DNA from: Kondoa subrosea
Lineage: Eukaryota
Assembly: GCA_039545335.1 (NCBI GenBank)
Contig: BCIN01000002.1
Location: 3,068,678-3,130,088 of the forward strand
Length of the DNA stretch: 61,411 nucleotides
Reading direction: 5' to 3'
Shown in pieces: positions 4,714-61,411 of the stretch. The notes under the pieces are model-generated. The model had not been told where the DNA came from and did not search any database. It worked only from the letters and a program-made list of their open reading frames with translations. Position numbers and translations under genes: made by a program. Position 1 is the stretch's first letter. Each line of letters opens with the position of its first letter.

Positions 4714-5596
4714 ATGATGCAGGAGTCAGTCAAATCGCGAAATTGAGAGGCGAATTGCTGAAAACCGGAAATCTAGCACAACAAGTTCGATAGGTGACTC
4801 TATCAAGGAGCAACCAGCCTTTCAGCGAGTCAGCAAATTTGCACAGGTGAGCCTGGATGCTTGAAAGTTAGAAGTCTGGCTGAGATTGCGGAATGAATAG
4901 CAATATCAAGCTCAACTAGGTATGTATTGCTGAGCCACTATGCCTGCTTCATGGCTGAGGCTGTGCAACGATGCATACAGATCGCGTCACACCACATACT
5001 TTCTATCGATGGCTAGCAACTTCTGGTCTCGTTCTCCTCTTCATGCTTCGAATCTTCACTATTCAAGCTTTCTACATTGTAACCTACGCATTAGGCATCT
5101 ACCTCCTCAATCTCTTCCTCGCATTCTTACAGCCCAAATTTGATCCTTCTCTGGAAATGGACATCGCGGAATCTGAGGTAGAAGAAGGTGCACCAGGTTT
5201 ACCTACTTCAACATGGAATGCCGACAAAGATGGGGAATTCAGACCATTCATTAGAAGATTGCCGGAATTCAAATTCTGGTATTCAGCTACAAGAGCTGTA
5301 GTCTTCTCGATCTTGGCTACTTTTATTCCACCTTTTGATATTCCAGTCTAGTGAGTTGGTTCTTCTGAGCCGTCAAAAGAACGTGGTTGACAAGTCTATC
5401 TCACAGCTGGCCTATTTTACTCATGTACTTCATCATTCTCTTCACCATCACAATGCGAAGGCAAATCGCGCATATGCAAAAGTACAAGTAGGCTCCTGAT
5501 ATTTGTGTCAAATGGGTCGACGTTGACCTATTTGTGTCCAGATATCTACCATGGGATTTTGCAAAGACAAAGTACTCAGGAGGAAGCAAGAAGTAG
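4714..5596 (+). CDS. RER1: Golgi-to-ER retrieval receptor Rer1
   Basis: YIVTYALGIYLLNLFLAFLQPKFDPSL...EFRPFIRRLPEFKFWYSATRA...FDIPV|YWPIL...MRRQIAHMQKYK|YLPWD. Spliced N-terminus MMQDTTSS. Confidence 0.96.
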
Positions 5597-28545: not shown

Positions 28546-31500
28546 ATGGTTGCTGAAGCGCAATCCTCACGAAACAATAACAGAGCCTATCCACGTCAAG
28601 GCAAATCTGTCCTTTCTTCAAGGCATTCTGATGGAAAACCTGATCACAAGCCAAATACTAGAAGAGATCGAGTAACTGCTGCCGCTCAAGCTCCTCTACA
28701 TCGTCATTTCCCAAATGCTTATACTGCTCCTCCTATCATTGGAGCTAACAAAAATGAAGAATTGGCTATCACACCTTTGTCTGGCAACAAAGTCAAATTC
28801 GTAAAGAAATATGAGACTACAAGGACGATAGAAATGTGAGTATTCTTCTCTTATTATCGTCCTTATTCTTTCCGAACTGATCCGCTTGATGTGTATAGCG
28901 AGATCTCAAACGTACCTATGAGTGCAGGCCAAGAAGAAGTAAACTTCATGCTTCAGCGCATTTGTAAGTTCTTTGCTGGATCAACGGTATAATATGATAG
29001 TGAGCGGGGTTTCAAATAGTACATCGTCCACCTTTTACCGACCCGAAGAAAGACAAACCCTTGAATTTCAGAGTCTTCTTATTCGCTAACAAAGGTCGAG
29101 GAGGTGATAGACAAGAATGGTCTGCTCATTGCGGTACGGCTATATTAACACTACCGACTGCAGTGGCTGCACATCGTTTGCTAGCTGATTACGGTTTATG
29201 TAAGTTTCAGCGAATAGGTTGTTGCTGTGTGGGGAATGTTGAATGGTTCTTCCAGATGGATCAAAGAGAACAACGTTGCATCTTCAGCAACAGAGACTAT
29301 ACTTCAGTCAAGGTAAGAGTCGAATTTACCTTCGCAATTTAAATTGCTGATGATCGGATTAGCCAAGAGTTGGCCAACGGATGGTCTTCTCGATCACTTA
29401 CAGAAGAATGATTGGCTAGATCCCAAAGAGAAGCAGAAGCGTCGAAGAGAAGATGAGAAACTTGCTCAGCTTATTCCCATTCGATCGGTTCAATTTGGTC
29501 GAATGTGCAACAACAATCGGTTTTCAAACGAACATGAAGTCGTCTTCAACGCAGCACAAGAAGATGGTTGGATCTGTTTTGATCGAATTGGTCAATGCTT
29601 TAGAATTGGTCATCATGAGCATGAAAACGTCTTGAAAGTTTCTGCATTGAGCGTAAAGAATATGGTTTCATTGGATCGTGAGACTATGGATGGAAATCAT
29701 AGCATTGTCTTGGTTTTGGAAACGAATCCTTCGATTGAAATCAGACCGCATCACAGCCTGGAAGGCGTGGAGAGGAAGGAACGGCTTCGAGCACCTGCTT
29801 TCGATGACAAGCACAAGACAACGGCTCCTTTCACCATGCGTCACATTTGTGTCAACTTTAAGACTGGAGCTGATCTGCACGACTGTGAGTCACTTTAGTA
29901 CCTGTTCGCGTATTTGTTGACGACTCTTTGTACAGTCGACAAACGCGGCAACATCATTGGTCTACCACATTCTGTTTTCCATCCTGAAGTCCAAATTGTT
30001 CAGGATAAGCTGTACCGAAATACAGGCAAGAATGATCCCCGCAAGCTCTTGACTGTTTGGCTGCAACAGCTCTTACCAGTGCCAAACTCTATTGCTCTAG
30101 CTTTCCAGCTGGAAAAACTCTTTCGGAATTTGGTTCTTACTCCAGCTGAAATCCTTAGTATGAAGCCAACCCTTGATATCATGGTTAAAAAGCATGGAGC
30201 TCCGCTTGCTGCTGCATGCTTGAATCATATTGGTCAAGATCTACAGATCATGGGCTACAGAGAAAAGCCTTGGACTGCTGCTCCAACAGATTGAAAAGAA
30301 CTGCTCAAGAGTGCTAAATCGCGATTGGACCGTTCTTCTCGGTCCCTGAAATCCGCAAATCGACCTGATCGACTTATACCTTGCTACCATGTCGTTATGA
30401 CACCCACAGGCATGTTCTTAGAAGGTCCATAGTAAGTCTATCTATATGCACCACTGCGGCTGAACTGATGCAGTATTTTATTCCAGCCCTGATACGACGA
30501 ATAGAGTGCTGCGAAAGTACGGAAAGACTGACTGCTTCGTTCGCGTTTCTTTCTTGGACGAAGATCAGCTTGAATATCGTTTCCCGCTCGAAGTCGATTT
30601 CCGAAGTTTCTTGGAAACCTCGGTCCGTACTATTCTAAAAGATGGATTCTGGCTGGGTGCTCGAAAATGGGAGGTGAGTGCTTTCTCCTTTAGATATTCC
30701 AAATTGAGTATACTTCAACAGTTCCTCGGCTATTCTCAATCTGCTCTAAAGTCTCGCTCTCTCTGGTTTGTTACACCTTTTGAGATGCCTGATGGGAAAA
30801 CTATCAACGCAGAAGCTATTCGAGCTGCTCTGGGTTCTTTCGAAAAGGTTCAATATTCGCCTAGGTCAGTGTGCTGAAGAAGCCATCTTTGCCCTTCTGA
30901 CTGAAGATCCTTCTTCAGTCGTCTTGGTGCACGTATTGCTCAGGCTTTCACGGCTACAGATCCTTCCATTACCTTGACCAAAGATCAAATCGTTCTTGGT
31001 ACGAACGACAACACTGACTTTGGCAAGCAATACGGAGATCGGCTCAACGCAAATGGCTACAACTTCACGTACTTATCTTCTCTGTGTTTCGGTCGCGCTG
31101 TCCTGATACACATTATTATGCAGAGACGGCTGCGGCAGAATCTCTCGTGCATTAATGCTTCGTGTATGGGCGATGTTGAAGAACCGAACGGAAGCTTTGG
31201 AAGATGATATGCCGTCTGCTGTTCAATTCCGTTTAGGCGGGTTCAAAGGCGTTCTGGTATTGGATCCTTACCTGAAGGGCGAGCTGGTGTTAGTTCTGTC
31301 TCGTTTCCTTACCGCAGAATTGTGAGCTGATATATGAATAAGTCACTTGCGACCGAGTCAACATAAATTCGACGGCGGTGATGATCCTCTAGAATTGGAA
31401 ATCTGCTCGTCTGCTTTCGATCAGCACAGACCTGGGTAAGCTTAGACTGCTATCTACCAGAGCGCCTCCTTATGATCGCAATAGCCCAATGTACCTAAGT

Positions 31501-35627: not shown

Positions 35628-40952
<5,325 letters not shown>

Positions 40953-42794: not shown

Positions 42795-43315
42795 GACTGT
42801 CCGATTGAGAACTTGCTCCCGTCTCGCTCAACAACGCAACAAGACAAGAACTGCGCTGCGAGCCAAGAGCATAGTGAAGCATACTGTCTCATGGTCATAG
42901 TCTCTATTCACTTTCGGGATGTTAGCGAAGCCCTTTCCTCCTCTTCTGCTCCTACCGTGTTCCTGCCGAAATCGTAATTCGCGAGATGTGATTGACGACG
43001 ATTTGGCGAGTCGCCTATCTCGAAGACTGTACAGCTTCGCATGCGTTAAATCGATACAAAAGCAACCCAACCATTTCCAAAAGTCACGCTGATGCTCATA
43101 ATGATGCTCAACCATGTATCGTCGACTTGCACTGTATGCTTGTCAGCCCGACGAAACTAAGGAAGTCTTGTTTGTATTGTCAAATTATGTTACGACTTTA
43201 CAAAGACGCTTTCTCCCTTTCTACTCCTCGGTAACTACACCATGACTTATATACTAGATCAGTAGTGAACTCGGCCCGTCTCATGAGCTGTGGTATGAAG
43301 AATTGTTTGGGAGGT
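42795..43315 (-). pseudogene. Degenerate repeat copy X1 (frameshifted coding-like sequence, paralogous to 43907-44455)
   Basis: Shares blocks such as CTCCTCTTCTGCTCC, TGTACAGCTTCGC, AAATCGATACAAAAGCAA, ACCATGTATCGTCGA and CTTTACAAAGA with X2. The peptide CFCIDL.HAKLY.L is in both copies, with frameshifts and stops. Confidence 0.55.
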
Positions 43316-43701
43316 CTGGTCTGGAGCGATCTTGCGCTTTTCTCGTAGCATGCCATGCGGTACGTCCTGCTGTGCCCTTTCAAAGCTCACCCTGAGTGTA
43401 TTGCTGTGACATAGGACATTCACTTTACCGGATCGCGGGACCTTAGAGAAGCCAATGATCAGGCGATCTATGCGATTTCAGGCAAAGGCCGATGAACGAT
43501 GAACGAGGTTATCGATTGGCTTCGCAGTCAGCTATAGCCGACAACTACGGTACAAGAGTAACCCCTCGCCCCGCGCCAATCACCACGCCCTATCGGCGCA
43601 CCCATTCCTGGTTCATTTCGTACTTCCGGATAAACGCCGAGCGCGCTCTACAACAACATGGTATATCCAATGGATTGCACACTCAAAATCGCCTGTGCAT
43701 C

Positions 43702-43835
43702 GGCCGGATGGTGTAGTTGGTTATCACGTTTGCTTAACACGATGTTCGCAAAAGGTCAAGAGGTCAGTCGGACGTCAAGACTTCTCGGAACTTGGACTCA
43801 TCTCCCATCTATTAGATCGAGCCTCTTTCTGGTCA
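43702..43835 (+). tRNA. tRNA-Val(AAC) with a 7-nt anticodon-loop intron plus a 53-nt GT-AG spliceosomal-type intron (43763-43815) in the T-arm
   Basis: GGCCGGA TG GTG-TAGTTGGTTAT-CAC G TTTGC TT AAC A[CGATGTT]C GCAAA AGGTC AAGAG [GTCAGT...GACTCAT...TAG] ATCGAGC CTCTT TCTGGTC A. Exons are identical to the copy at 60368-60448. Confidence 0.85.
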
Positions 43836-43906
43836 ATTGATAACAAAGCAGCAGCTTGGGGCAGCGATCTGTGAGAATCCTTGCTATCGCGACCTCCTCG
43901 TATAAG

Positions 43907-44455
43907 AACCTATCTGATCGAGGTGAGCTTGCTCTCATATCGCTTCAACAATACAAAAGACTAGATGGTACATGTGCATCGCAAGATAAGAGCATCTGAA
44001 GCGTGCTGTCCCACGATCATCACCTTGATTCGCTCTCATCGGGGCAGCGAAGCTCTTTGCTCCTCTTCTGCTCCGATCGTTCTCCTCTCGAATACATACT
44101 TGCTATATGTTGTTGACGAGGATTGGTCAAGTTCCCTCCCTTGAAGATTGTACAGCTTCGCGTGTGCCAAATCGATACAAAAGCAATTCAACGATCTCCA
44201 GGGATCATCTCGAAGCTTCTTATTGATGCGCGACCATGTATCGTCGATGATTGTTCATGTATCGTCAATGTTTAATGTACGGTTGCCTGCCCATTGGGGC
44301 TAAGGAAGACTTATCTGCAATGTCAACTTTTGTTCCAGCTTTACAAAGATGCTTTCCTCCTCTTTACTGCTCAACAAATGCACTATGGCATTGCGTACCA
44401 GATCATTCATGAACTCAACTCTTCTCGAGAGCTTTTACATCAGGTATTGTTTGGT
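43907..44455 (-). pseudogene. Degenerate repeat copy X2 (paralog of 42795-43315)
   Basis: IDDTWSRINKKLRDDPWRSLNCFCIDLAHAKLYNLQGRELDQSSS, with in-frame stops upstream. Direct repeat of X1. Confidence 0.5.
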
Positions 44456-44580
44456 ACGCGCCATCATCTTATTGTCTTGTCTTCCTTCAGATCGAGCCTC
44501 TTTCCCGTCAAAGAGTCGATACTGAGAGTGATACAAATGCCTTGATTCCCCAATATGATGCCTGTCATGGCCTGTACATA

Positions 44581-45915
44581 CTACACTACGCCCTTGTATT
44601 CCTCTTCCACCTTTACAGCTCTATCTGTCGTGATCTCAATCTGATCCACGAAACTGATCCTGCTGACAATCATGGGAGTCGCCCCAGAGGATTGATTAGA
44701 ACGACCGTTCTTATGCTGCAGGGAGCTGCCAGGCAAATCTACGGTGATCACTCGTCTTGGCGCATCTGGATTCTGCGAAGCTTCCCTGAAAGTCAGGTTG
44801 ACCAGTAAAGTGTAGAGATAGCAACTTGGCAACAGGCGAGGAATAAGTTCGTAGGAGCTTCTGAAGCGTAGGTAGATAATTCTGGTGCAAAAAGACCATC
44901 GAGCTTAATAGGTGTGGGAGAGATGAAGGCGAAACTTACGTCGTCAGAATCACAAGTAGTGCTACCAGTCCGTTCGTCCGCACGAGGAGTAGCAGAAGCC
45001 TGTTTGGATTGAAATGACAAGCCTTGATCGGCTACCGTATGAGATGGGTACATACCGCTTCACCAGCCTTTATGCGGCAGAAGCATGAGCTTTGATGTCA
45101 GAAGTACAGGATTATAACCCTACCGTCCTATCTTTGGAGTCTTTCTATCTTGTGAAGTAGTTGTTTGGTGTATTGTCCAAAGCATAGCGCAAACTGTTTG
45201 AGCAGAAAGCTTCATCAGCCCGCTATCAAGCCCTGCCGCGAAAGCTTACCGATTATCACATCAATGGCTACCTGCACCACTATGCCTACTGTGAAGACGT
45301 CCAGCACCCACCTTGGCGGTTGTCCGGGCGGAACGAAACGAAGCATAATGCTATAGACTATACGCTCGAAGAATGAGCCAGCTGGGTACGGACAATCGAC
45401 GAGGCATACCGAGGAATATAACAACGCCGACAAATGCGAGACTTGCAACTATGACTGGCAGCACAAGGCGTCTTCGTGTTAGAAGATAGAGCTAAAGATT
45501 TGTCAGCCAGCCACTCTGTCCGCTTCTCAACTAGGCAACTCACTCTATGGCTGTAATATAATTGCACGACGAAAGCAATAGTCGCTATTGAGCAAAAGCA
45601 GAACATTGCAGCAAGTGAGTAGGAGGCTGAGTACGTCGGATTGCCCAGTAAAGCTTGATGATACCGCGTAATGATGACCGCAGCTACCGAACCGCCATGA
45701 AAAACATTGATGGCAGTAGCTACGACCACAAAGCCTGTCATTGAGGCATCTTAAATACAAGTTCAGCTGGAAAGTCCAATGGAATGACCTTTGAGTATCC
45801 ACGGATCTTGAGGAAACCTCGTCCAATACGACTGAGCTTGATGAAATGTATAGCCCGTCCCAACCAATGCAAAGATGTTGAAAGCGCAATTGGCTATTGT
45901 TATCGGTATATCCAT
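44581..45915 (-). CDS. DUF6534-family multi-pass membrane protein, copy A
   Basis: MDIPITIANCAFNIFALVGTGYTFHQAQSYWTRFPQDPWILK, FVVQLYYSHR, VAIDVII, CYLYTLLVNLTFRE. Resembles the basidiomycete DUF6534 pattern (FP.D...LK; Y..LL..L..R). Confidence 0.72.
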
Positions 45916-46992
45916 CGAGAGTCTGGGCAGTGTATTGTGATATGACAGTATGTGAAGAGCAGCATAGTCATCTGCTCCATAGCAAGTCGCATAGTAAACC
46001 TAAAAGCATCCGGAAATACATACATAACATTGAATCATAACATTGCGCACAACCGCAACAAAAGGAAGGTTTGTAAAGCTAATTCGAGCCACGCCGATCC
46101 CGATCGCGCCCAGCGGGAGACAGTCGGAGACTCTTGTCTGTACTGCTGAGCCTGCACACTTTGTGTAAGAAAATGGGCAGTTCTGTGAACCAACATCACT
46201 CTAATCTTTTCGCACTCCAAAAGGCATTAATACAGCTCAGCACCAAAGCAATCATCGTCAGAAGGGCAGGTGCACGTTATGACGGCAGAGTCGCAAGCAT
46301 GGCAAGCAAGAACCTATTCCAGCAAGTTAAAAGGCTGGACATGATGCGAAATTCAATTCGCAGAAATTGCATTATGTACGACTGAGGAGGTCGCTGAGGG
46401 ATAAGCAGACTTGGAGCAGAAACGAGCAACACATGGACCATGGTTAGACCAACGGAAAGATATGGTTTGAGACAGAGCCTAAGAACGAATATTAGTCAAA
46501 CTCGAATAGCAGCCCCCTGCAATACACGAGTCACAATACTGCCAACTAGTAATACACTCAGGAATGTCTTTGACATATGTGACATATGTCAAAAACATTT
46601 GCAAAAGCTACCATCAGAAGTCCTGAAGCCTGACAGGCGCCGAGGGAATAGAACAGAAGCAAGATGGCCTTCACATGACTGGTTGACAGCGCGGAGAGGA
46701 ACGATAAGGGGGGAACCAAATAAGGCCCTTGTCATTGGTCATGGGAGAGAATGCAATATTGTCGGAGCGAATCTCTTTCGCCTTTGCGCATGCAATTATT
46801 GGACATCGGATGTATTGAAACTCAGCGAGAAATGTCACCACAAAGCTTGGCCTAGTGCTTGCTTGGTACGCGCCATCATCTTATTGTCTCGTCTTCCTTC
46901 AGATCGAGCCTCTTTCCCGAAAACGAGTCGATACTGAGAGTGATACAAATGCCTTGATTCCCCAATATGATGCCTGCCATGGCCTGTACATA

Positions 46993-48325
46993 CTACACTA
47001 CGCCCTTGTATTCCTCTTCCACCTTTACAGCTCTATCTGTCGTGATCTCAATCTGATCCGCGAAACTGATCCTGCTGACAATCATCGGAGCGGCACCAAA
47101 AGACCGATTAGTGCGACCATTCTTATGTTGCATTGAGCTACTAGGCAATTCCACCGTGATCACTTGATTTGGCGCATCTGGATTCTGCGAAGCTTCTCTA
47201 AAAGTTAGATTGACCAACAAGGTGTAGAGATAGCAGCTCGGTATTAGGCGAGGAAGAAGTTCGTAGGAACTGCTGAAGCGTAAATTGACAATTCTGGTGC
47301 AGAAGAACAATCGAGCTCGATAGGTGTACTAGAAATCTAACCATAACTTACGTCGTCAGAATCACGAGTAGTGCTACCAGTCCATTTGTCCGCACAAGGA
47401 GTAGCAGAACCCTATTTGTATTGGATCGGTGAGCCTTAGATCAGCTCCGGTAGGAGATGGGTTCATACCGTTTCACCAGCCTGTACGTGACAAAACATTA
47501 GCTTTCATGTCAAGAGTAACGAATTATAATGCTTACCGTCCTATCTTTGGAGTCTTCCTATCTTGTGAAGTAGTTGTCCGATGTATCGTCCAAAGCATTG
47601 CACACACTATTTGGGCAGAAAGGTTGACCTAACATCCCGCTTTCAAAGACCATGCGTACCTATGATGACGTCTATCATAATTTCCGCAGTAACACCCACT
47701 GTGAAGACATCCAGCACCCAGGAAGGCGGTTCTCCGGAAGGAAGGAATCGAAGCATGATACTATAGGCTATATGCTCCAAGTATGAGCGAGCTGGCTAGC
47801 GACAATCGAGGAGGCATACCTAGCAATATAGCAGCGCCACTAAATGCGAGACTTGCTACTATGATTGGCAGTACAAGGCGTCTTCTTGTGAGAAGATAGA
47901 GCTGAATATTCGTCAATCAGTTACTTTATCCGCTTTCCAGCAAGGAGACCCACTCTATAGCTGTAATACAGTTGCACAACAAAAGAAATAGTCGCTATCG
48001 AGCAAAAACAAAACATTGCAGCAATTGAGTAGTAAGCTGAGTAGGCTGGATTGCCCAGTAAGGCTTGATGATACCGCGTGACGACCACCGCCGCTACCGA
48101 ACCGCCATGAAAAACATTGATAGCAGTAGCTACGACCACAAAGCCTGTCATTGAGGCATCTTAAATACAAGTTCAGCTGGAAAGTCCAATGGAATGACCT
48201 TTGAGTATCCACGGATCTTGAGGAAACCTCGTCCAATACGACTGAGCTTGATGAAATGTATAGCCCGTCCCAACCAAAGCAAAGATGTTAAAAGCGCAAT
48301 TGGCAACCGCTATCGGGGTATCCAT
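46993..48325 (-). CDS. DUF6534-family multi-pass membrane protein, copy B
   Basis: MDTPIAVANCAFNIFALVGTG.... Same exon structure as copy A and same C-terminus DRAVKVEEEYKGVV*. Confidence 0.72.
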
Positions 48326-49652
48326 TGAAACTCTGGGCAGAGTATTGCAGCGCTTGTCGATGTGATATAGCAGTATGTGAAGAGCCGCATAATTATCTCC
48401 TTCATGGCAAATCGCATAAGCAACCTAAAAGCGGCGGTCGGGATCCGAAACAATTCACAACCGTATCAAAAGGAAGGTTTATTGAGCCGCGCCGTTATCG
48501 CTCACGCGGCTAAACGAAGCCTCTCGTCTGCTGACTGTCCCTCACGCATCAGAACGGACGCTTCTGCAAATCAAGTTCATCAACATGGACTCGCAAATAA
48601 ACGGCAAAGCAATGATGCAATGCAGCCTCGAAGCGATCTTCACAAAAACGTTATGCGTATTACGTGGCAGCAGAGGATGCACGAAGCACGAGGACGGGCA
48701 ACAGAACATACCAACAAGCTGGAAGAGGCCGAGTGTGCAGAACTCAAAGACAGTCGAATCATGTAGCACAGAGAGGCTTGCTGAAGGGCAAGAAGAGTCA
48801 GGCCATTAAACAAGCACAGATGGAGGAAGACGGTGTAGCGCGCAAGATATGGTCAAAGATATGGTTTCCGATCAAGAGCCAATTACATTAGTCAGCACTT
48901 AAGTTCCCAATATATAGCAGCCTAGCTACACTACCCCGAGTCGCAATACTGCTAATATTATTACCTAATAGTGATTAATCCAGAAGTGTCCTTTGCGGTT
49001 GCGACAAGCTGCTGGTACAAGTCTGAAGCCTGATTACCGCCGAAGGTGAGGAACATAAAAGAAGCAAGATGAACTTCACATGAATTGACTGGCAGCGCGA
49101 TGAGGATCCATACCGGACAAAACAAGTAAGGCACTCGTCATTGTTCATGAGAGTGAATGCAATATCTTGTGAGTGAATCCCTTTCACCTTCGCGCATGCA
49201 ATTCTTCGCCGGATGTTCTGAAACCGAGCGAGATTGATAGAAGTAGGAGAGATGTCACCCCACAGCTTGACTTAGTGCTTGCCATGCATTCCGGCGACTA
49301 CAGCCATCATGAGGAATGCTGACATTGACACGCGTATTGTTGCAATGTTGCAAGCAGCGTGAGAAGGAGGAAAATATAAGTAGCACAGTTCTACAGTCAG
49401 GAACCGGACTGTCAGATCGCCGACAGAGTATGAAAGCAGGTCAGACAGAAAATCCCTGCGTCGCTTGAACAAGCTGAACAAACCCTATAGGACAGGCATA
49501 AAGGACATAGTAGACCAAGCAGTGATTTTGCGCATGCGCAAGAAGGGGCGAGCAGAAAAAGGACACAAAGCTGCGCCGCTGGCGTTCGACATGTCACAAG
49601 GCTTAATCGTGCAATGGCAAAAAGCGATAGCTAGCAATGCATACGCTCCGTT

Positions 49653-52279: not shown

Positions 52280-55200
52280 CTACTGCCTATAATACGTATT
52301 AGGTGGTTGCTGTCCGTTGTTGAGCTGCGGTATGGATCGTAGCAGCGCTTGTGCATTAGCGAAAGCTGTATTGCCATTTTGTTGCTGTTGATGAGCAGTA
52401 GGCTGCTGCCATGCTTGAGGCTGAGGAGGTGGTCTATAGCTTCCATACCCACCATACGAAGATGTCGCAGGTGCTTGTTGAGGCGGTTGAGCATATTGCA
52501 TTGGAGGAGGATTCGAATAGCTGCCGTAACTTGGCTGTTGAGGGTAGGCATTCGCTTGAGGATATTGCGCCGGCGGCCTGTAGCCTGCGCTATAGCCGCC
52601 TGCATATCCACCCGCTGCTCCGTATGGCTGAGATTGTGGCACGATGGGAACAGGTGGAACGAAAGGTCGCTGTGAACCGTTGTTGTACTGCTGCATAGGA
52701 GGCGCTCCATAGCCGTGGTTCGGAGGAGTAGGATAGCGAGGAGGAGGTTGCTGACTGTAACCAGAGTAAGGATCATTCATGTTGTTTCTTGGAGGTCCTG
52801 AATTGTTGTTGAAACCGCCTCGACCGGGCCTTCTCACACCGACGCCGTCAATATCTCGACGGTTGGCGTGGAAGTTGCCATTCTGATTCTGCTGCCTTCG
52901 ATCCGGTACACCTCCTCGCTTGACTGTATCCTTATCGTACGGATCAAGAATGCCCTTTTGAACATTCGCACCTGGCAGCAAGACGCTACGATGCGGTCTG
53001 GTTTGATTTGGGAAAAAGTAGAACGAAGCGATAGAGCGATCGTTGTCGATGTCACCTTGACCAGGCAAGTCGAGAGGAGAGAAATAGGTTGCACCGGGTA
53101 CAGATTCTGGATCTGGCATAAGAGCACCGAACATGCCCTTGGAGTAGCTAGGATTGATGACCAGAGGCTATGGAACATTTAGCATCAAGCAATACTATCG
53201 CGAAGACAAGCTGACCTCTTTTGGTGCCTTGCCATATAAGCCATTGATTGTAGGCCATAACGGATTGTCTTCATGCACAAAGATCGCATCATTACCACGA
53301 GTATTCCTCCGCTTCTCATCATCCGACAACTGATCTTGTCTTGGATCCAAAGCATCCAGTAATCGCTTTTGTTCGATGAAAGGGAGCAAAGCTACACCTT
53401 GCCAAAGCATCTTCTTGCCGTTCATATCTATGTCGAAGTTTTCCGGGTAGAAATCGATGATTGGTGAATCTTCATCGATCATAAGGCCTTGAAAAGGTTT
53501 TGGAATGTGCTGCCGACTATCGAGCGGTATACACATTTTAGCACATGCCTAGATGAAGTGTCGATTGGGACTAACCTTGCAGCAGGAAAAACACCCATAA
53601 GCTGATCATACGGCCTGAAAGGTTGACCGAGTTCGAATTTGATATCGAATTCCGATAACTCGGTGAAGTCTGATGCGAAAGGTGCGTAATGATAGGGGTA
53701 GAACCATTGCCACGACGGACAGCCTTGGTAGTAGTAAGCTAGAACCCAACAAAGACCTTCCATGTAAGCTTCAACGACCCTTTGCAGTCAACATCAGCAC
53801 GGCTTTCGCGATCAATCATATTGAAGGACGTACTTCCGCCTGAATTCTGTGTCCGACAGCTCTACGCCAAATTTCTGTCTATAGTATCGTTCTTTATAGC
53901 CAGGCTCATATAGTCTGGACAAATACCATGAGCTCAAGATGCAGCGATCCATTCGAGACTCACTTGACTGTATCTTCCTGCTCTACCATATTATCACCCA
54001 TCATCTTCAATGGCTTAGGCACAGCTGGTTCAAGAGCAGCTGAAATCAGAACAGAAGGACCTTCGATATCGTCATCATCCTCATCATCGTCTTCTTGCTC
54101 TGCATCTTGAGCAGGCTTCTCAAGCAAAGGTGTTGATGCATCTGCTCGATCTGGTATATCCGCTTCATCTGCTTTCCTCTTCACACCTCGAGAAACATCA
54201 GAAGACATTGAAGTATCTTCCGTCGCAGCTTCCTCTGGTGCAGGACTAGGTGAAGCAAAGACTTCTCCACGAAGTTCAGCTTTTAGTCGTTCTGCCGCGG
54301 ACATGTTTTCCGCTTTCACTTTGACTTCATCGATTTTGAGAGGAGCAGTAGGTCCAGTTTGAGCTAAGAAACCAGCCGGTTTTGGTGGTAAGAAAGAAGG
54401 TTTGCCAGGTAGATTGTTTGAAGTGTTTTCAGTAGCGGAAGAAGCGACTTGGCGGAAAGCTGAAGTAGCCATTGTACTGCTGATACCGGTTTCTTCGGCT
54501 TGGCGATCAGCTTCGATTTTGCGTCGCTTTTCGCCTTTATCTTGTCTTTCCTCGGCTATAATAGTATTAGCCTGTTATATGACTCTCATGGTAAGGAAGA
54601 ATGCAAACCTTCTCGTCGTTTTCGAAAGATCTCATCCTCTCTAGCAGCAAGACCATCCAGAATAAATTGAGCTCTTTCAAGCCTGACTTTCCCATGTTCA
54701 GTCATATAACCACCCATATTCGGCAACTCCTTCTTCCAGATTTCCAATAGTACATCAATAGCGCCTTCTCGAATTTCCAAAGAAGGTAAATGAGGTAAGA
54801 AATCGTTGCCAACAAAGAAAATGAGGAAAACCCAATCGTCAATCGATCGTTCGAAATCGAATTCAATACCGCCGACATTGAGTTCTACTTCTAGATATTC
54901 TCGTAGAACACCAACATCGAGGAAGATGAAAGGCTTTCGAACTGGATTATCTGCAGCATTGGCTTCCGCGGCTTTTTTGATCGCAGATGGTGTTGCTGTA
55001 CAAGAAGAGGAATGATGACCTGGGATGCCGCACTTGTGACAACCGCGCGGTTTGGCTGCTTGCAAGAATACATCTTCACGAAGAACTTTGAAGTGAGGTT
55101 CATGAGTGGCGAGCGAAAGCATAATCAAATCTGCATCCTGTTGAAGGAATGAATAACCGAGACTGTGATTACCTGAAGGAGACTTACGAGACCATAAATG

Positions 55201-56044
55201 ACATGCTTCGTATTAGGATTGTAGTTTGGCTGCACTCTTTGTTTGCGAATGAAGTCCATTATCTTATGTTCTCCTTCACCCGGTACTGAAGCATCGGAAA
55301 TAATAACAGTGAGCTGTTCGTCATCAGCCCTTCGTATAAGCACTGGACCATGCAAGACAGATGAGCGACGAACCCCTTGCCATCCTGGAGCAGTGTTCAT
55401 CTTCTTTGCTACCCAATAACGCAAACAAGAAGCGAGCAAATCCATAAAAGGTGTTCCAGGAGTAATAGCATTTGAATCCCAAGCTTTCTTTCCATTGAGC
55501 ATCTCTTCATTGACCGTTCTTCCTAGCAGGCGCCATTCCTCAATCGCTTCCAATCTAGCTTCTTCTTTCTCTTGAGCTTCCCGAGCAGCCCTGAAACGTC
55601 TAGATCGTTGCTGGTTCATCTTTGCACGAGGAGCGACACCATCGATGGCCATGAAGAGGAGTTTTCGTGGTTTGACCATGTTCACTACTCGTTCAGTATA
55701 ATTGAAGATCTCAATCATCATTTCTTGCTCGGTTTTCGGTGCAGGTTTTCCCTCGGGATGCGTGCAGGGGTGTACTATCCCATTCATATCAAGATATAAG
55801 CTGATTACGTAATCACATTGAGCATAAACATGTAGGAATTGGTGCGACACAGACTTACGCATCGAATTCCTGGCCATTCAAATTTTTGTGTCCCATGTTC
55901 GTTTTGTCTTCATCATCTTCGATGACAGAAGCGACGATCTTTGGATACTTGCGACTTAGCCATCGGAAGAGTGCTGGTCTGCATAACAAGTAAGATTTGA
56001 TCCAACCCGTTGCGTACATAATGATGCAAGACTTACACTCCCAT
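52280..56044 (-). CDS. RAT1: Nuclear 5'-3' exoribonuclease 2 (Rat1/Dhp1/Xrn2)
   Basis: [77 protein letters not shown], zinc knuckle [33 protein letters not shown]. Confidence 0.96.
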
Positions 56045-56453: not shown

Positions 56454-57569
56454 ATGGCCAATTCGAAGTTTTCCTAGTGCGCTGTCACTCTATCGTTCTT
56501 AATTTTATCGTCTCATATGAAATCTCTCAGTGTTCGAAACTTCGAATTATCTGATGTCCTGCTACCGAACACCTACCTTGTCGTTCGACTAGATGGCAAA
56601 GGGTTTCATCGATTCTCGGAAAAGCATCACTTTAAGAAACCCAACGATCGTCGAGCTTTAGACCTCATGAACACAGCAGCAAGATTACTTATGGAGAAAA
56701 CCGAGTTTGGGAAATCAATCTTTTTAGCTTTCGGTGAATCGGATGAATACAGTTTCTGTTTCGATAAACGTTGCAGCGTCTTTAATAGAAGAGAAGGGTG
56801 GGGCTTTCTTGTTACTTTGATTGTGAATTGTATGTTGATTTTGTGTTTATGCAATAGCAAAATATTGTCAACCTGTGTTTCGCTCTTCACTTCTTTCTAT
56901 GTTCGAAATTGGTCTTCGTATTTCCCTGATGATCCTCTTGATCCCTCGGACGATAGTCCGTCCTTTGATGGAAGGTTGGTCCCATCAGATTCTCTTGTCT
57001 TGCCTGTCTCATCTTTGCCGCAGAGTGGTAGTATATCCTTCATGGAATGAGATCGTAGATTACTTCAAATGGAGACAAGTAGACAGTAAGTTGTATGCCT
57101 TTGCTGCATGAGAAATTTGGCTTATTGATTCCTCAGCCCATATCAATAATTTATACAATACCTGCTTTTGGGCGCTGGTTCAACAAGGGAATATGACAAC
57201 AGCAGAAGCTCATGCTGAGTTGAAAGTGTGTACAAGCAGGCTAGTCAAGGTGATACTAACGAAGTATGCAGGGCACGCTTTCAGCTCAGAAGAATGAAAT
57301 ACTCTTCTCTCGCTTTCAGATCAATTATAATCAGATAGACGAACTAGAAAGGAGGGGAAGTATATACAGGCGGCAAATCGAAGCTCCTTCAGAAACAAGT
57401 ACAGATCAAGCAAGTTTTCTACAATCTCTTCTCCAAACATCTTATGCTGAAATAGAGCTCTGCTGTACAGAAGAAGAAGAAACAACCACCCTCTACAACA
57501 GTTCTATTGCACGAAGATATGCTAAAAGAAGTTTTCTGGACTTCACCTCATTTCATTCCATACCAATGA
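56454..57569 (+). CDS. THG1: tRNA(His) guanylyltransferase
   Basis: MANSKFSY|VRNFE..LLPNTYLVVRLDGKGFHRFS..HHFKKPNDRRALDLMN, GESDEYSF, PSFDGR, DYFKWRQVD|HINNLYNTCFW, LLHEDMLKEVFW. The last intron is probably GC-AG (57410-57470). Confidence 0.96.
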
Positions 57570-57577
57570 CATGAACA

Positions 57578-60147
57578 TCACCCAGCCAAAGATTTCCTCT
57601 GCAAATTCCTTCGAGCTCTTCTTTTAGCCGCACCAGCTCCTTCGCCCATTTCTAAAGTCAAGTAACTTACTTCTTCCCAGTCCAACCCGCATACGCCATC
57701 CGCTTCTCGACCGGAATCGATCTGTCTCTTGTCCAGCATACCAACTACTGGTAATTCGATTTCAGATTTGACGAGAATGATAGGGCGATTAAGTAATTCT
57801 AGAGGGATAGGGGTGAGAAGATGGAAAGAAGTAGCAGCTGGATCGATGGAGCGTATAAGGGCATAACCAATACAATGTGATTCTGAAGGCCGAGGTAGAG
57901 GCGCGAAAGGATCATAAGGGAAACCAGGTTGTCTTTCTTGTTCGGTATCAGATGTAAGGACAGCTACTAATGAACCGTTCAAGGCATAAGGAGCGTGTTC
58001 GTAAGCTACTTCTTCGGGGAAAATGTGGATGCTTTGTAGAGCTGAAGAAGTCCAATCTAACGCTAGAGGAAGTTTGCTGACTAGCGGAACATTGAAATCC
58101 CATGATCTTGTAGCTGGCTTTGAATACATGTAGCTCATCATCATGAGCGTTCTAGCATCAGCCGCTGTGATCTTGGAACTGCTTAGCACTTCGCTGATTG
58201 GTTCCAAGTGGTGAACTATTGGTTCGCTGGCATCGTCCAATTCGTAGGTGATAGCGGCATCGCCCATTTGCAAAATTACTGTAGGTTGAACGATGCGGTA
58301 AATCGAAAGCAAAAGATCGGCTCCGAGACCTGTTGCCCAGCCGTGAGTATTGACTACCAGAGGAATGATATCCGATCGTCTGACATCGGTTGCAGAGTCT
58401 TCTTCCGCCGGGTTCATCATTTTCTCCTGATAGTGAGAAAACAGATCTGCAATTGCACTTGTATACTGCTCTGGGTCAATAGCTGGTGAAGTTGAGCCAA
58501 TAAAGTGAGCTCGCGTAGGTGTTTTAGGATGGCAGATAGCTGGGCCAATGACGGGCTCAGAAAGAAGATGTAGGGAGACTTGGCCGCTAGGGGTGAATTC
58601 ACTCTGGCCAAGATCGCAGTCTAGCCAGGCCACTTGCTTGTACCTGTGTGAATGATAAGCATGCAATCCTCGAATGCATCGAGACGTCCACTAACGTAGC
58701 TAGTAGCCTATTGACTGCCATTTTCGCCAAAGTACTTTTGCCGGACTTCTTTGGGCCTCCAATAAAGCACACAAGACGACCGTCTTTCTCCTGGCCCAAG
58801 TTACGCAAAGCTTTTTCTTTTTGTTGACTTAGCAGCAGCCTTTTCATTCCTCTTGGCCCATAATCCAACAGCTGTGAATGCGATACAAGTTGAAAGCCAG
58901 TGCCATTACTTGCTGGTTCAGCTGAGGCGAGAGGAAAGAGTTGACCACTGCGTCCGAGCATACCAGATAATCGAGCTAGAGGAGCCATATCCTGTATGCC
59001 TGTTTGCAGCGGGTCGAGCAGAATGACAGCGCTGGAAGTAGGGATTGATGTACTTGATAGATCGAGATCTTGGAATAGCGATGAGAAAGATGTCGAATCA
59101 GGTGTTTCTGATTCAACAGGTGATATTGCAGGTAGAGGGTGACTTGATGGTGCATAAATAGGCACAGATGAGGAAGCGGACGTAAGGACGGATCCAGCGA
59201 CAGCAATTCGTCCTTTCAGCACTCTGAGTGTACAGCAGCCAGAAATTGTCATAGACTGCATCAAAATGTGAGCTGATTCTGGTAAAGTGTAGAAAACCGA
59301 CTTCTGTATTTCCTATTCCTAAGAGAAGCGATACACCTCCTTCTCCCTCTATCCGCATGACATTGCTTCCCAATTTCGCTGCAAAGGAAGGCTCAGGCGG
59401 CTCTATTTCGCGCTGGATCGTTGCATCCTCGACTGAGTCTATTGTCATATTTGCTGTCACATCTCCTGCTGGCTCGTCTAACGTAGCTTCAACAGTTTCG
59501 AGGTTGATTTCCTCCATCAGGACGTCCTGTGAGTTGTCTGGAAGGGAAGATTTCCCGCGCCGCGAGCTGGACCCTTGCATACGATCTGACACTGCTCCAT
59601 CAATGACTTCAGCCGGCGAAACATGACAGTTTGGCTCGGAGATAATTTCTAGTTCTTGACTGCTTTCATCTTCCGCTTGATTGGGTACATCAGTCTCGGT
59701 GCCAGCCTGGGACACTGGTTCTATCTGTTCAGTGGCTGGTAATTCGTCGGTTTTCCTCCTCTTATTGCGCCTAGGCTTGTCCTCTGATGCTGCAAAATAT
59801 CTATCACTCGCTTTCCCAGACTTTGCATCTTTTGATCCGCTTGAGCTCTTTCTTGGCTTGATTACGAGACTCTCATTCGATTCAGTAGGTGAAGGAGGAA
59901 GCGTCGGAGACTTAAGAGAGCGAGATTCGTAAGGCTTGACTACCAATGCAGTTGGCAAGATTTCAGGTTGCGCTTGTTGCTGCTGGCTTTGTTTCCTAGC
60001 TTGCAAAGCAGACATTTCCGTCTTGACAGGTCTCACATGCAGGACGCTTTGAGATACTTGAGGGACGGAAACATAGAAAGCAGGCGAAGAAGGTGGAACA
60101 GCAGATTTGCGTGTACTGCTGCGCTTGCGCTTGACTGGAGCAGACAT
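57578..60147 (-). CDS. GRC3: Polynucleotide 5'-hydroxyl kinase (Grc3/NOL9)
   Basis: Walker A GPKKSGKSTLAK, WLDCDLGQSEFTPSG, PLVVNTHGWATGLG, CIGYALIRSID..FHLLTPIP. Long disordered N-terminus. Confidence 0.92.
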
Positions 60148-60354: not shown

Positions 60355-60365
60355 AAAAAAAAAAA
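60355..60365 (-). terminator. Oligo-dT RNA polymerase III terminator of tRNA-Val
   Basis: T11 begins 2 nt after the discriminator base on the minus strand. Confidence 0.85.
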
Positions 60366-60367
60366 TG

Positions 60368-60448
60368 TGACCAGAAAGAGGCTCGATCTCTTGACCTTTT
60401 GCGAACATCGTGTTAAGCAAACGTGATAACCAACTACACCATCCGGCC
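60368..60448 (-). tRNA. tRNA-Val(AAC) with only the 7-nt anticodon-loop intron, followed by a T11 Pol III terminator
   Basis: Full cloverleaf (74-nt mature sequence plus 7-nt intron). The T-run corresponds to A11 at 60355-60365 on the + strand. Confidence 0.93.
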
Positions 60449-60507
60449 GATGCACAGGCGATTTTGAGTGTGCAATGCATTGGATATACCATGTTGTTGT
60501 AGAGCGC

Positions 60508-61411
60508 TGTCCAGACCATCTCATAGATGAGCTGGAGCGGGCTGTAGTCAACATGATGTGGAAGAGAGGCAGACATGAGGTCTCATTGGACAGGCTTACC
60601 ACTCCAATGTCCTCAGGCGGTTTCGGCTTACTTCCCCTCAAGCGACAACTCTATGGCTCCAGAGGAGTGTGGATCTACTGGCTCTTATGCGATCCAGTGA
60701 TGTCTCAGGAACCGCATCTACTCACTATACGCAATCGATTGGTCAATGCAGTTGCAAAACAGCCAAGAACTTCTTCCGATGATCCTGGATACTTCTGGAA
60801 CTGGAGAGCTATCTTTTGCAACGCACCAGATGACAAGCGGGTCGCATGGGCAGTCGCAAGATCAAAGATGCGCAAACTCTTGTCGCCAATATGGCAAGAC
60901 TACCTAGAAGCCTGGGAGCTCGCAACATACCTCCCAAAAGACCTCAACTGGAGCGAAACCTTCTTATCCAAGCAAGTAGAAAGGAAGCAACACAACGCGT
61001 GGGGTTTTCTTACGATGGTGGACTCCAGCAATTTCCAACAAATAGGCGGAGATATCATTGCAGTAGCACAAGACGTAGTGAACCAGCGAAGGCAACATCA
61101 GCTCTTCAGGAAAACAATTCAACCGGAAGGCTGGAAGTCTCGTTTCCCAAATCTTATCCATGAACGATGGCAGAAAGCATGGACAACAACAGCTTTACTC
61201 GATCGAATTCTACCAGAAGAGGTCGACACAGCCCATCGCATATCTCTCGGCTCTCTACAACCACAATCCCGCAAGATTGAATGGAAGAATCATCGTCCAG
61301 TTGGCAATGATTCGCAGTGTTCTTTGTGCGGAGATATGGTCAGAGAAGATTTCGCTCACATCTTCTCGCATTGCACCACCTCAAAGGAAATATGGGCACT
61401 TGCTGGCCCAC
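60508..61411 (+). mobile_element. 5'-truncated non-LTR retrotransposon (L1/Tx1-like ORF2 C-terminal part); runs off the right edge of the window
   Basis: About 300 stop-free, intronless codons: CPDHLIDELERAVVNMMWKRGRHEVSLDRLTTPMSSGGFGLLPL (post-RT P...GG.GL motif) through to CSLCGDMVREDFAHIFSHCTTSKEIW (zf-RVT CCHC). Not in the ORF track because it has no stop inside the window. Confidence 0.9.

Follow-up and report, generated by a model that had tools for sequence, protein, structure and literature searches.

Can a nuclear tRNA gene acquire an intron of the kind that the spliceosome removes, and what would such an intron mean for the gene that carries it? The question is raised by a locus of Kondoa subrosea, a basidiomycete without close named relatives (over a 295-aa exon of RPC1, the gene for the largest subunit of RNA polymerase III, the highest identity is 68%). 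At this locus a tRNA-Val sequence is interrupted in the T arm by 53 nt that begin with GT and end with AG. The window, that is, the whole stretch of DNA that was analysed, comprises 61,411 nt of assembly GCA_039545335.1 (contig BCIN01000002.1, positions 3,068,678-3,130,088 of the forward strand); coordinates below are those of the window, which also holds an uninterrupted copy of the same tRNA gene.

The reading favoured here, to which we assign a probability of about one half, is that the interrupted locus is a young, redundant, probably decaying or marginally productive gene copy that captured a real spliceosomal-type intron. The locus would then record the gain of an intron by a Pol III gene, in a cell that does not depend on this particular tRNA gene. 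If the copy is transcribed, some of its transcripts may be spliced and may then pass through RNase P, RNase Z and TSEN to give the same tRNA as the intact gene does.

The interrupted copy and its intact twin

When introns are allowed, ARAGORN calls one tRNA gene in the 61-kb window, a tRNA-Val(aac) at c[60367,60448], and this is the intact gene. The interrupted copy lies 16.6 kb away on the opposite strand, and its relation to the intact gene is defined by two BLASTN blocks. The first aligns 43643-43762 with the reverse complement of 60388-60507 (119/120 identities) and consists of the 59-nt 5' flank together with tRNA positions 1-53; the second, 43814-43838, has 25/26 identities between the two loci. 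The gap between these blocks is exactly 53 nt, 43763-43815, precisely where the original prediction had placed an insertion between G53 and the T-loop. The exons of the interrupted copy show no change relative to the intact gene. When the insert is cut out by its coordinates, ARAGORN calls a tRNA-Val(aac) of 74 bases plus a 7-nt intron, so that the further claim of a tRNA-Val restored without exon mismatch is borne out as well. The features of the two loci are collected in Table 1.

Table 1. Features of the two tRNA-Val loci and of the DNA adjoining them (window coordinates)
Feature	Position	Strand	Remarks
Multi-copy element, ~20 copies	43502-43640	.	Ends beside the start of the interrupted copy's shared flank
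Shared 5' flank of interrupted copy	43643-43701	+	58/59 identical; G/C difference at 43673
Interrupted tRNA-Val copy	43702-43835	+	Same body as intact gene except for the 53-nt insert
First tRNA part, positions 1-53, with acceptor and D arm	43702-43762	+	Identical to intact gene (BLASTN); cloverleaf by ARAGORN
A-box region	43709-43720	+	Within first tRNA part
Anticodon AAC	43736-43738	+	Within first tRNA part
7-nt canonical intron of interrupted copy	43741-43747	+	ARAGORN; agrees with the 37/38 position rule
T-stem 5' strand, after variable loop	43758-43762	+	End of first tRNA part
53-nt spliceosomal-type insert	43763-43815	+	Between tRNA positions 53 and 54
Second tRNA part, positions 54-73	43816-43835	+	T-loop, 3' strands of T-stem and acceptor stem, discriminator A
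Unique 3' flank without oligo-T terminator	43836-44331	+	First run of at least 4 T is TTTT, 44328-44331
Trailer of intact gene, CA then T11 (Pol III terminator)	60355-60367	-	No counterpart at interrupted copy
Intact tRNA-Val(AAC), comparison copy	60368-60448	-	7-nt canonical intron; ARAGORN -i
5' flank of intact gene, common to both copies	60449-60507	-	BLASTN; homology stops at 60507
5'-truncated non-LTR-type reverse-transcriptase open frame	60508-61410	+	Runs off the end of the window

The AG common to the ends of exon and insert leaves three possible placements of the insert (a 2-nt ambiguity), of which only one has GT..AG ends. The homology of the two loci amounts to a bare 196-nt patch made up of the 59-nt 5' flank and the tRNA, and it stops at the discriminator base. 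Beyond the 59-nt flank no upstream homology of the two copies was found at the DNA or protein level, and the unique 3' flank that begins at 43836 has no paralogue in the window.

Two features are common to both copies. The T-loop starts with A at position 54, which is presumably unusual for an elongator tRNA. The 7-nt anticodon-loop intron (43741-43747 and 60423-60429) is close to the shortest recorded for eukaryotes, where the range is 6-133 nt (PMC4090602).

The interrupted copy appears to be both young and dispensable. Strong splice signals and unchanged exons are also to be expected of a selected working gene, and to that extent they count against regarding it as a decaying copy; on the other hand, if the copy is very young, its lack of decay is uninformative either way.

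The insert compared with spliceosomal introns

The insert has the donor GTCAGT, a CTCAT branch motif whose A, at 43800, is 15 nt from the 3' end, the acceptor TAG and a length of 53 nt. A set of local introns was assembled for comparison. Within the window, 2877 GT..AG candidates connect two open frames that are each 45 codons or longer, and 1176 of these candidates are 42-80 nt long. An EM model fitted to 266 clusters of ORF-joining candidates gave no usable consensus, and a motif-filtered set was used instead: of the 1176, 27 candidates, forming 23 groups, have GTNNGT, a CTNAY branch motif and YAG. These 23 reference introns were picked by a motif filter, and their agreement with the insert, set out next, is therefore partly circular. 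Their length is 43-70 nt (median 52), a range in which the insert falls; their commonest donor hexamer is GTCAGT (7/23); their branch A is 11-27 nt from the 3' end; and 5/23 share the TAG acceptor of the insert. Pyrimidines make up 83% of the insert between branch and acceptor (the mean for the reference introns is 0.62). The donor, branch position, acceptor and typical length noted in the original prediction thus all match. That prediction had also pointed to mRNA introns with the same donor at 4725, 17258 and 30865; all three sites do read GTCAGT, but only the one at 30865 was confirmed as belonging to an intron that joins open frames.

A check that does not depend on the motif is provided by RPC1, whose exons were placed by means of a homologous protein. 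The ten gaps between the matches, judged by eye and with the frame unchecked, hold introns of ~47-64 nt, nearly all of which have CTNAY shortly before the acceptor. Their donors, also read by eye, are more varied (GTCAGT twice, GTAAGT, GTATTT, GTACAA, GTGAGC and others).

How often would such a likeness arise by chance? The pattern used for the estimate (GTNNGT, a CTNAY whose A falls 8-35 nt short of the end, and YAG) is found in 8 of 400,000 Markov 53-mers (~2e-5) and in 7 of the 122,716 53-mers of the window, a count that includes real introns and the insert itself. The three possible placements raise the chance odds at most 3-fold. (The motif alone, it should be said, is weak evidence, since a scan free of constraints on position or length gives 111 hits in the window. 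The match owes its force to the fact that the boundaries of the insert are fixed independently by the intact twin.) The intron-likeness of the insert is far beyond chance. Its splice signals, as read from the sequence, are typical or better than typical and stand at the strong end of the local range. By these marks the insert is a genuine U2-type GT-AG spliceosomal-type intron lying in a tRNA gene copy, and it would probably be spliceable.

An account in which the insert has nothing to do with splicing, being filler DNA or a mobile-element fragment in a tRNA pseudogene that merely happens to look like an intron, has to be weighed against these numbers. It can draw on the AG at both ends of the insert, a possible 2-nt target duplication or microhomology, as well as on the repeats around the locus and the reverse-transcriptase element beside the parent gene. 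Even when the terminal AG is left free to allow for a target duplication, only 50 of the 122,716 window 53-mers match in donor, branch motif and pyrimidine at -3 (4e-4), and the Markov figure given above, with AG required, is lower. Moreover, the insert has single-copy depth and is unique in the window, so that it represents no repeat family, and reading of its ends disclosed no terminal inverted repeat. Coincidence of this kind is very improbable.

Uniqueness also bears on where the insert may have come from. No second copy is present in the window at up to 3 mismatches (BLAST-short finds chance-level matches of 8-13 nt only), and in the reads an unbranched unitig passes through the insert at one-copy depth; what this means operationally is that the 31-mers of the insert recur at no other locus in the reads. 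A multiplied intron family, of the introner or MITE-like type, was rejected on the basis of this single-copy state (copies of less than ~90% identity would escape detection). Nor do the read data contain a near-identical parent intron that has a 31-mer in common with the insert, a finding that speaks against very recent copying from another gene of this genome. The same observation weighs against the favoured reading, the capture of an intron by a young gene copy, inasmuch as recent intron transposition predicts a parent intron and the reads show no near-identical one. An origin of the insert by tandem duplication was also considered and rejected: the adjacent 53 nt on either side are unlike it, with chance-level BLAST-short matches only.

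The integrity of the assembly was examined in two DNA runs (X1 and X2) of a single sample; since this is probably the sample behind the assembly, the runs do not constitute independent support. In both runs a 324-nt unitig spans 43733-44056, including the insert and both of its junctions, without a difference. This unitig belongs to the lowest depth class (53 in X1, 144 in X2), its neighbours having about twice its depth; the uninterrupted T-arm junction has a depth of 89 (X1) and 212 (X2). The halved depth may signify that only one haplotype carries the insert, although low-copy paralogues would give the same picture.

Between 43378 and 44186 the unitig depths of run X1 fall into classes of ~50 and ~100; an alternative contig over 43378-43531 has 11 differences and one indel; and one contig joins 44186 back to 43300. 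Together these depth classes and contigs suggest a heterozygous diploid or dikaryon, or else low-copy paralogues, with the region arranged differently in the other copy.

An assembly artefact is one of two minor readings that may be taken together; the other is a non-canonical intron removed by the tRNA splicing endonuclease through a bulge-helix-bulge, in the manner of archaea, Cyanidioschyzon or nucleomorphs. The position of the insert does lend itself to the latter, 53/54 being a known site of non-canonical introns in archaea (PMC4090602). The structure does not. The 4-bp central helix would have 2, 1 and 1 pairs in the three placements, no more than 2/4 in any of them, and the flanking helices are absent. 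Shuffled sequences fold as stably as the 134-nt precursor does (z = 0.36). An endonuclease-type (TSEN/BHB) intron was rejected on grounds of the 53/54 position and the missing helices, and a difference-free unitig across insert and junctions, at normal depth in the two runs of one sample, speaks against an artefact; this pair of readings is barely credible. TSEN would be unable to remove the insert because it is in the wrong place (53/54, not 37/38) and forms no bulge-helix-bulge. The spliceosome is, as far as these sequence features go, the only machinery that could remove it.

Transcription of the interrupted copy and the relation to known systems

The TATA-like motif, the A-box region and the B-box string are all unchanged in the interrupted copy. 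The first of these, TATAT at 43662-43666 (-40 to -36 relative to tRNA position 1, as read from the sequence), we take to be an upstream Pol III element, by analogy with fission-yeast tRNA promoters. The B-box string, 43814-43823, is preserved because exon and insert have the same terminal AG; that of the insert and the second tRNA part, as can be read off directly, rebuild the string. What does change is the spacing of the two internal elements, A box and B box being 105 nt apart (start to start) in the interrupted copy versus 52 nt in the intact gene. TFIIIC reportedly tolerates varied spacing of the A and B boxes that it binds (PMC4090602); if this tolerance extends to K. subrosea, transcription of the interrupted copy, with its intact promoter elements, is plausible. 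The precursor contains no internal run of at least 4 T. Downstream, no oligo-T terminator follows the interrupted copy until the TTTT at 44328, ~490 nt away; the intact gene has T11 two bases past its end.

It is unlikely, though these elements would suit it, that the interrupted copy is a working tRNA-Val gene, transcribed by Pol III like fission-yeast U6 and giving rise to a precursor that needs the spliceosome for its 53-nt T-arm intron and TSEN for its 7-nt intron. Perfect exons and strong splice signals are what such a gene should have; its TATA-like element, A box and B-box string are intact, its precursor is free of internal T runs, and spliced Pol III U6 genes serve as a precedent (PMC5855946). 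Furthermore, should the multi-copy element at 43502-43640 represent an independent insertion of a tRNA-targeting retroelement, Pol III factors would once have been bound at the copy (compare PMC5391098). Against this stand the absence of a terminator for ~490 nt, and then one of T4 only; redundancy with an intact gene 16.6 kb away; a setting in repeat-rich DNA lacking recognisable genes; and the insert-bearing unitig at about half the depth of its neighbours, perhaps in one haplotype only. The case for a decaying copy is largely built of the same material, namely the missing terminator, the 196-nt patch of homology, the Pfam-less surroundings, the flanking repeats and the low depth of the insert. 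The original interpretation, a pre-tRNA dependent on both spliceosome and TSEN, is thus sustained in one respect, all spliceosomal sequence features being present and those of TSEN/BHB splicing being absent from the insert, but it left aside the missing terminator, the repeat-rich setting of the 196-nt patch and the intact twin.

A missing Pol III terminator would be irrelevant if the tRNA-derived segment were simply crossed by a Pol II transcript (either non-coding or the untranslated portion of a gene that has escaped recognition) from which no tRNA is intended. Pol II transcripts are the usual home of spliceosomal introns, and a further intron-like segment of this strand spans 43360-43414; this segment is of little weight, however, for a large part of the 111 unconstrained hits in the window are estimated to be due to chance. 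No notable open frame runs over the spliced junction, the open segments in the three frames being 72, 94 and 27 aa (the longest without Met), and a coding exon across the junction was rejected on this account. The surrounding ORFs also belong to no Pfam family. A Pol II transcript of this sort is quite improbable.

Standard searches detect little at either locus. Default ARAGORN reports 0 tRNA genes in the window and Rfam at gathering score 0 matches; with Rfam relaxed to E<=10, neither copy is recognised as a tRNA, and the two matches that appear are spurious, non-tRNA and near the intact gene, with none at the interrupted copy. The interrupted locus is thus missed by both ARAGORN and Rfam, and similar genes would accordingly escape annotation. 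Metagenome scans with the exact exon strings (25 nt and 21 nt) gave 0 loci.

Introns of snRNA genes were reportedly described by Tani and Ohshima (1989, 1991) and by Takahashi et al. (1993, 1996), and spliceosomal introns of ascomycete rDNA are said to have been described by Bhattacharya et al. (2000). The U6 gene is transcribed by Pol III. Spliceosomal introns are recorded in PMC5855946 for U6 of S. pombe, for U6, U2, U5 and U1 of Rhodotorula hasegawae, and for ascomycete rDNA. The snRNA introns resemble the present case in being short introns with ordinary pre-mRNA signals in conserved small RNA genes, and in having fungal hosts, one of them a basidiomycete. They differ in that what is dealt with here is a tRNA gene copy known from its sequence, devoid of a terminator and accompanied by an intact twin. 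[quoted passage not shown] The rDNA introns are comparable as spliceosomal-type introns in genes outside Pol II transcription; those, however, are in Pol I genes and many are kept across taxa, whereas the insert described here is at a single locus.

Intervening sequences in the T arm are known from the tRNA genes of archaea (where 53/54 is a listed position), Cyanidioschyzon merolae and nucleomorphs, and the archaeal 53/54 and nucleomorph T-arm introns are removed by the endonuclease route (PMC4090602, the source also of the other published details in this paragraph). A nucleomorph tRNA-Val(AAC) even has a T-arm intron whose excision was observed by RT-PCR. The introns of archaea and C. merolae are removed by way of BHB motifs, of which the K. 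subrosea insert forms none, and the inserts of the Guillardia nucleomorph are 3-24 nt long, as against 53 nt with GT, branch and AG here. In eukaryotes, a tRNA gene that has many synonymous counterparts and alone among them carries an arm insertion is regarded as a pseudogene. The interrupted copy resembles such pseudogenes with D- or T-arm insertions in being one of several synonymous copies, and here the terminator is missing too; it is unlike them in its full set of strong spliceosomal signals and in the undamaged state of the rest of the gene.

A search of article full texts, few of them from subscription journals, brought up snRNA and rRNA genes but no nuclear tRNA gene among those reported to contain spliceosomal-type introns, in accord with the statement in the original prediction that no case in a tRNA gene is established. 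In the portion of a tRNA-processing review that was available (PMC10275265), the spliceosome is mentioned only as a contrast to tRNA splicing.

What would follow depends on the reading. Were the interrupted copy a working gene, unlikely as this is, it would be the first tRNA gene whose maturation needs the spliceosome, with a Pol III or mixed Pol II/III precursor that undergoes both lariat splicing (53 nt) and TSEN splicing (7 nt). It would also imply that spliceosomal introns are able to colonise tRNA genes in a poorly sampled basidiomycete lineage, where standard tRNA finders miss them. Splicing of the insert, if it takes place, would mean that a single tRNA precursor is handled by two splicing systems which textbooks treat as separate, and the non-mRNA genes invaded by spliceosomal introns (snRNA, rRNA) would extend to tRNA. 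Even a dead copy would be a rare and nearly undecayed case in which a non-coding Pol III gene has received a spliceosomal-type intron.

Surroundings of the two loci and retroelements

The DNA around the interrupted copy (41.3-46 kb) is repeat-rich, with diverged local duplications and a multi-copy element, and 12 ORFs of 40.6-46 kb gave no Pfam match. Diverged direct duplications (76-85% identity) pair 42924-43226 with 44046-44372, 44447-46007 with 46859-48432, and 46645-46830 with 49050-49233; the larger of the duplicated units carry minus-strand ORFs that look membrane-protein-like by eye and lack a Pfam match.

The multi-copy element next to the shared flank of the interrupted copy is evident from unitig depth, which in run X1 (one copy being ~50) is 1116 at 43517-43547 and drops to 123 at 43641-43671, and from loose unitig ends at 43501/43502 and 43623. 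Its copy number declines towards the tRNA, as would be the case for the ends of 5'-truncated retroelements on the minus strand, and the segment may be the 3' end of such copies. A short CGATGAA tandem occupies 43490-43503.

A retroelement also adjoins the intact gene. The open frame at 60508-61410 corresponds to the C-terminal third of a reverse-transcriptase protein: it matches P0121, a 1189-aa protein with RVT_1 at 500-741, with 57% identity over 100% of the query and with 53% over residues 769-1094, and its zf-RVT score of 26.9 bits is just below the cut-off of 27.5. The two tRNA loci cease to be homologous at 60507, and similarity to P0121 starts at 60508. The element accordingly has its truncated 5' end turned towards the 5' end of the intact tRNA gene and lies 59 nt upstream of it. 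No DNA or protein homology was found that would make the multi-copy element at 43502-43640 kin to this retroelement.

The arrangement beside the intact tRNA-Val gene is that of TRE5-A, a tRNA-targeting non-LTR retrotransposon of Dictyostelium (PMC5391098). The differences are that the host here is a fungus, that the element is 5'-truncated and only partly inside the window, and that targeting is deduced from one clear case. A reverse transcriptase has probably been active at tRNA genes of this genome recently. With such an enzyme at tRNA genes, RNA-mediated intron gain becomes conceivable, if unproven. A chimeric retrocopy, in which a LINE reverse transcriptase switched to a tRNA precursor, was dropped as a candidate, the orientations not fitting.

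For the favoured reading, the capture of an intron by a redundant gene copy, the candidate mechanisms are reverse splicing combined with reverse transcription, or repair-mediated insertion. An intact twin that allows exact comparison, together with an adjoining reverse-transcriptase element, makes the mechanism of intron gain directly testable at this locus.

The window that holds the two tRNA-Val copies is also home to several genes of RNA metabolism: RPC1 (35631-40872, minus strand), an XRN-type 5'-3' exonuclease, Thg1 and a CLP1/NOL9-type kinase, the coordinates of the genes other than RPC1 being listed jointly as 55128-55877 (-), 56478-57047 (+) and 57581-58690 (-). Their presence alongside both tRNA copies is probably a coincidence.
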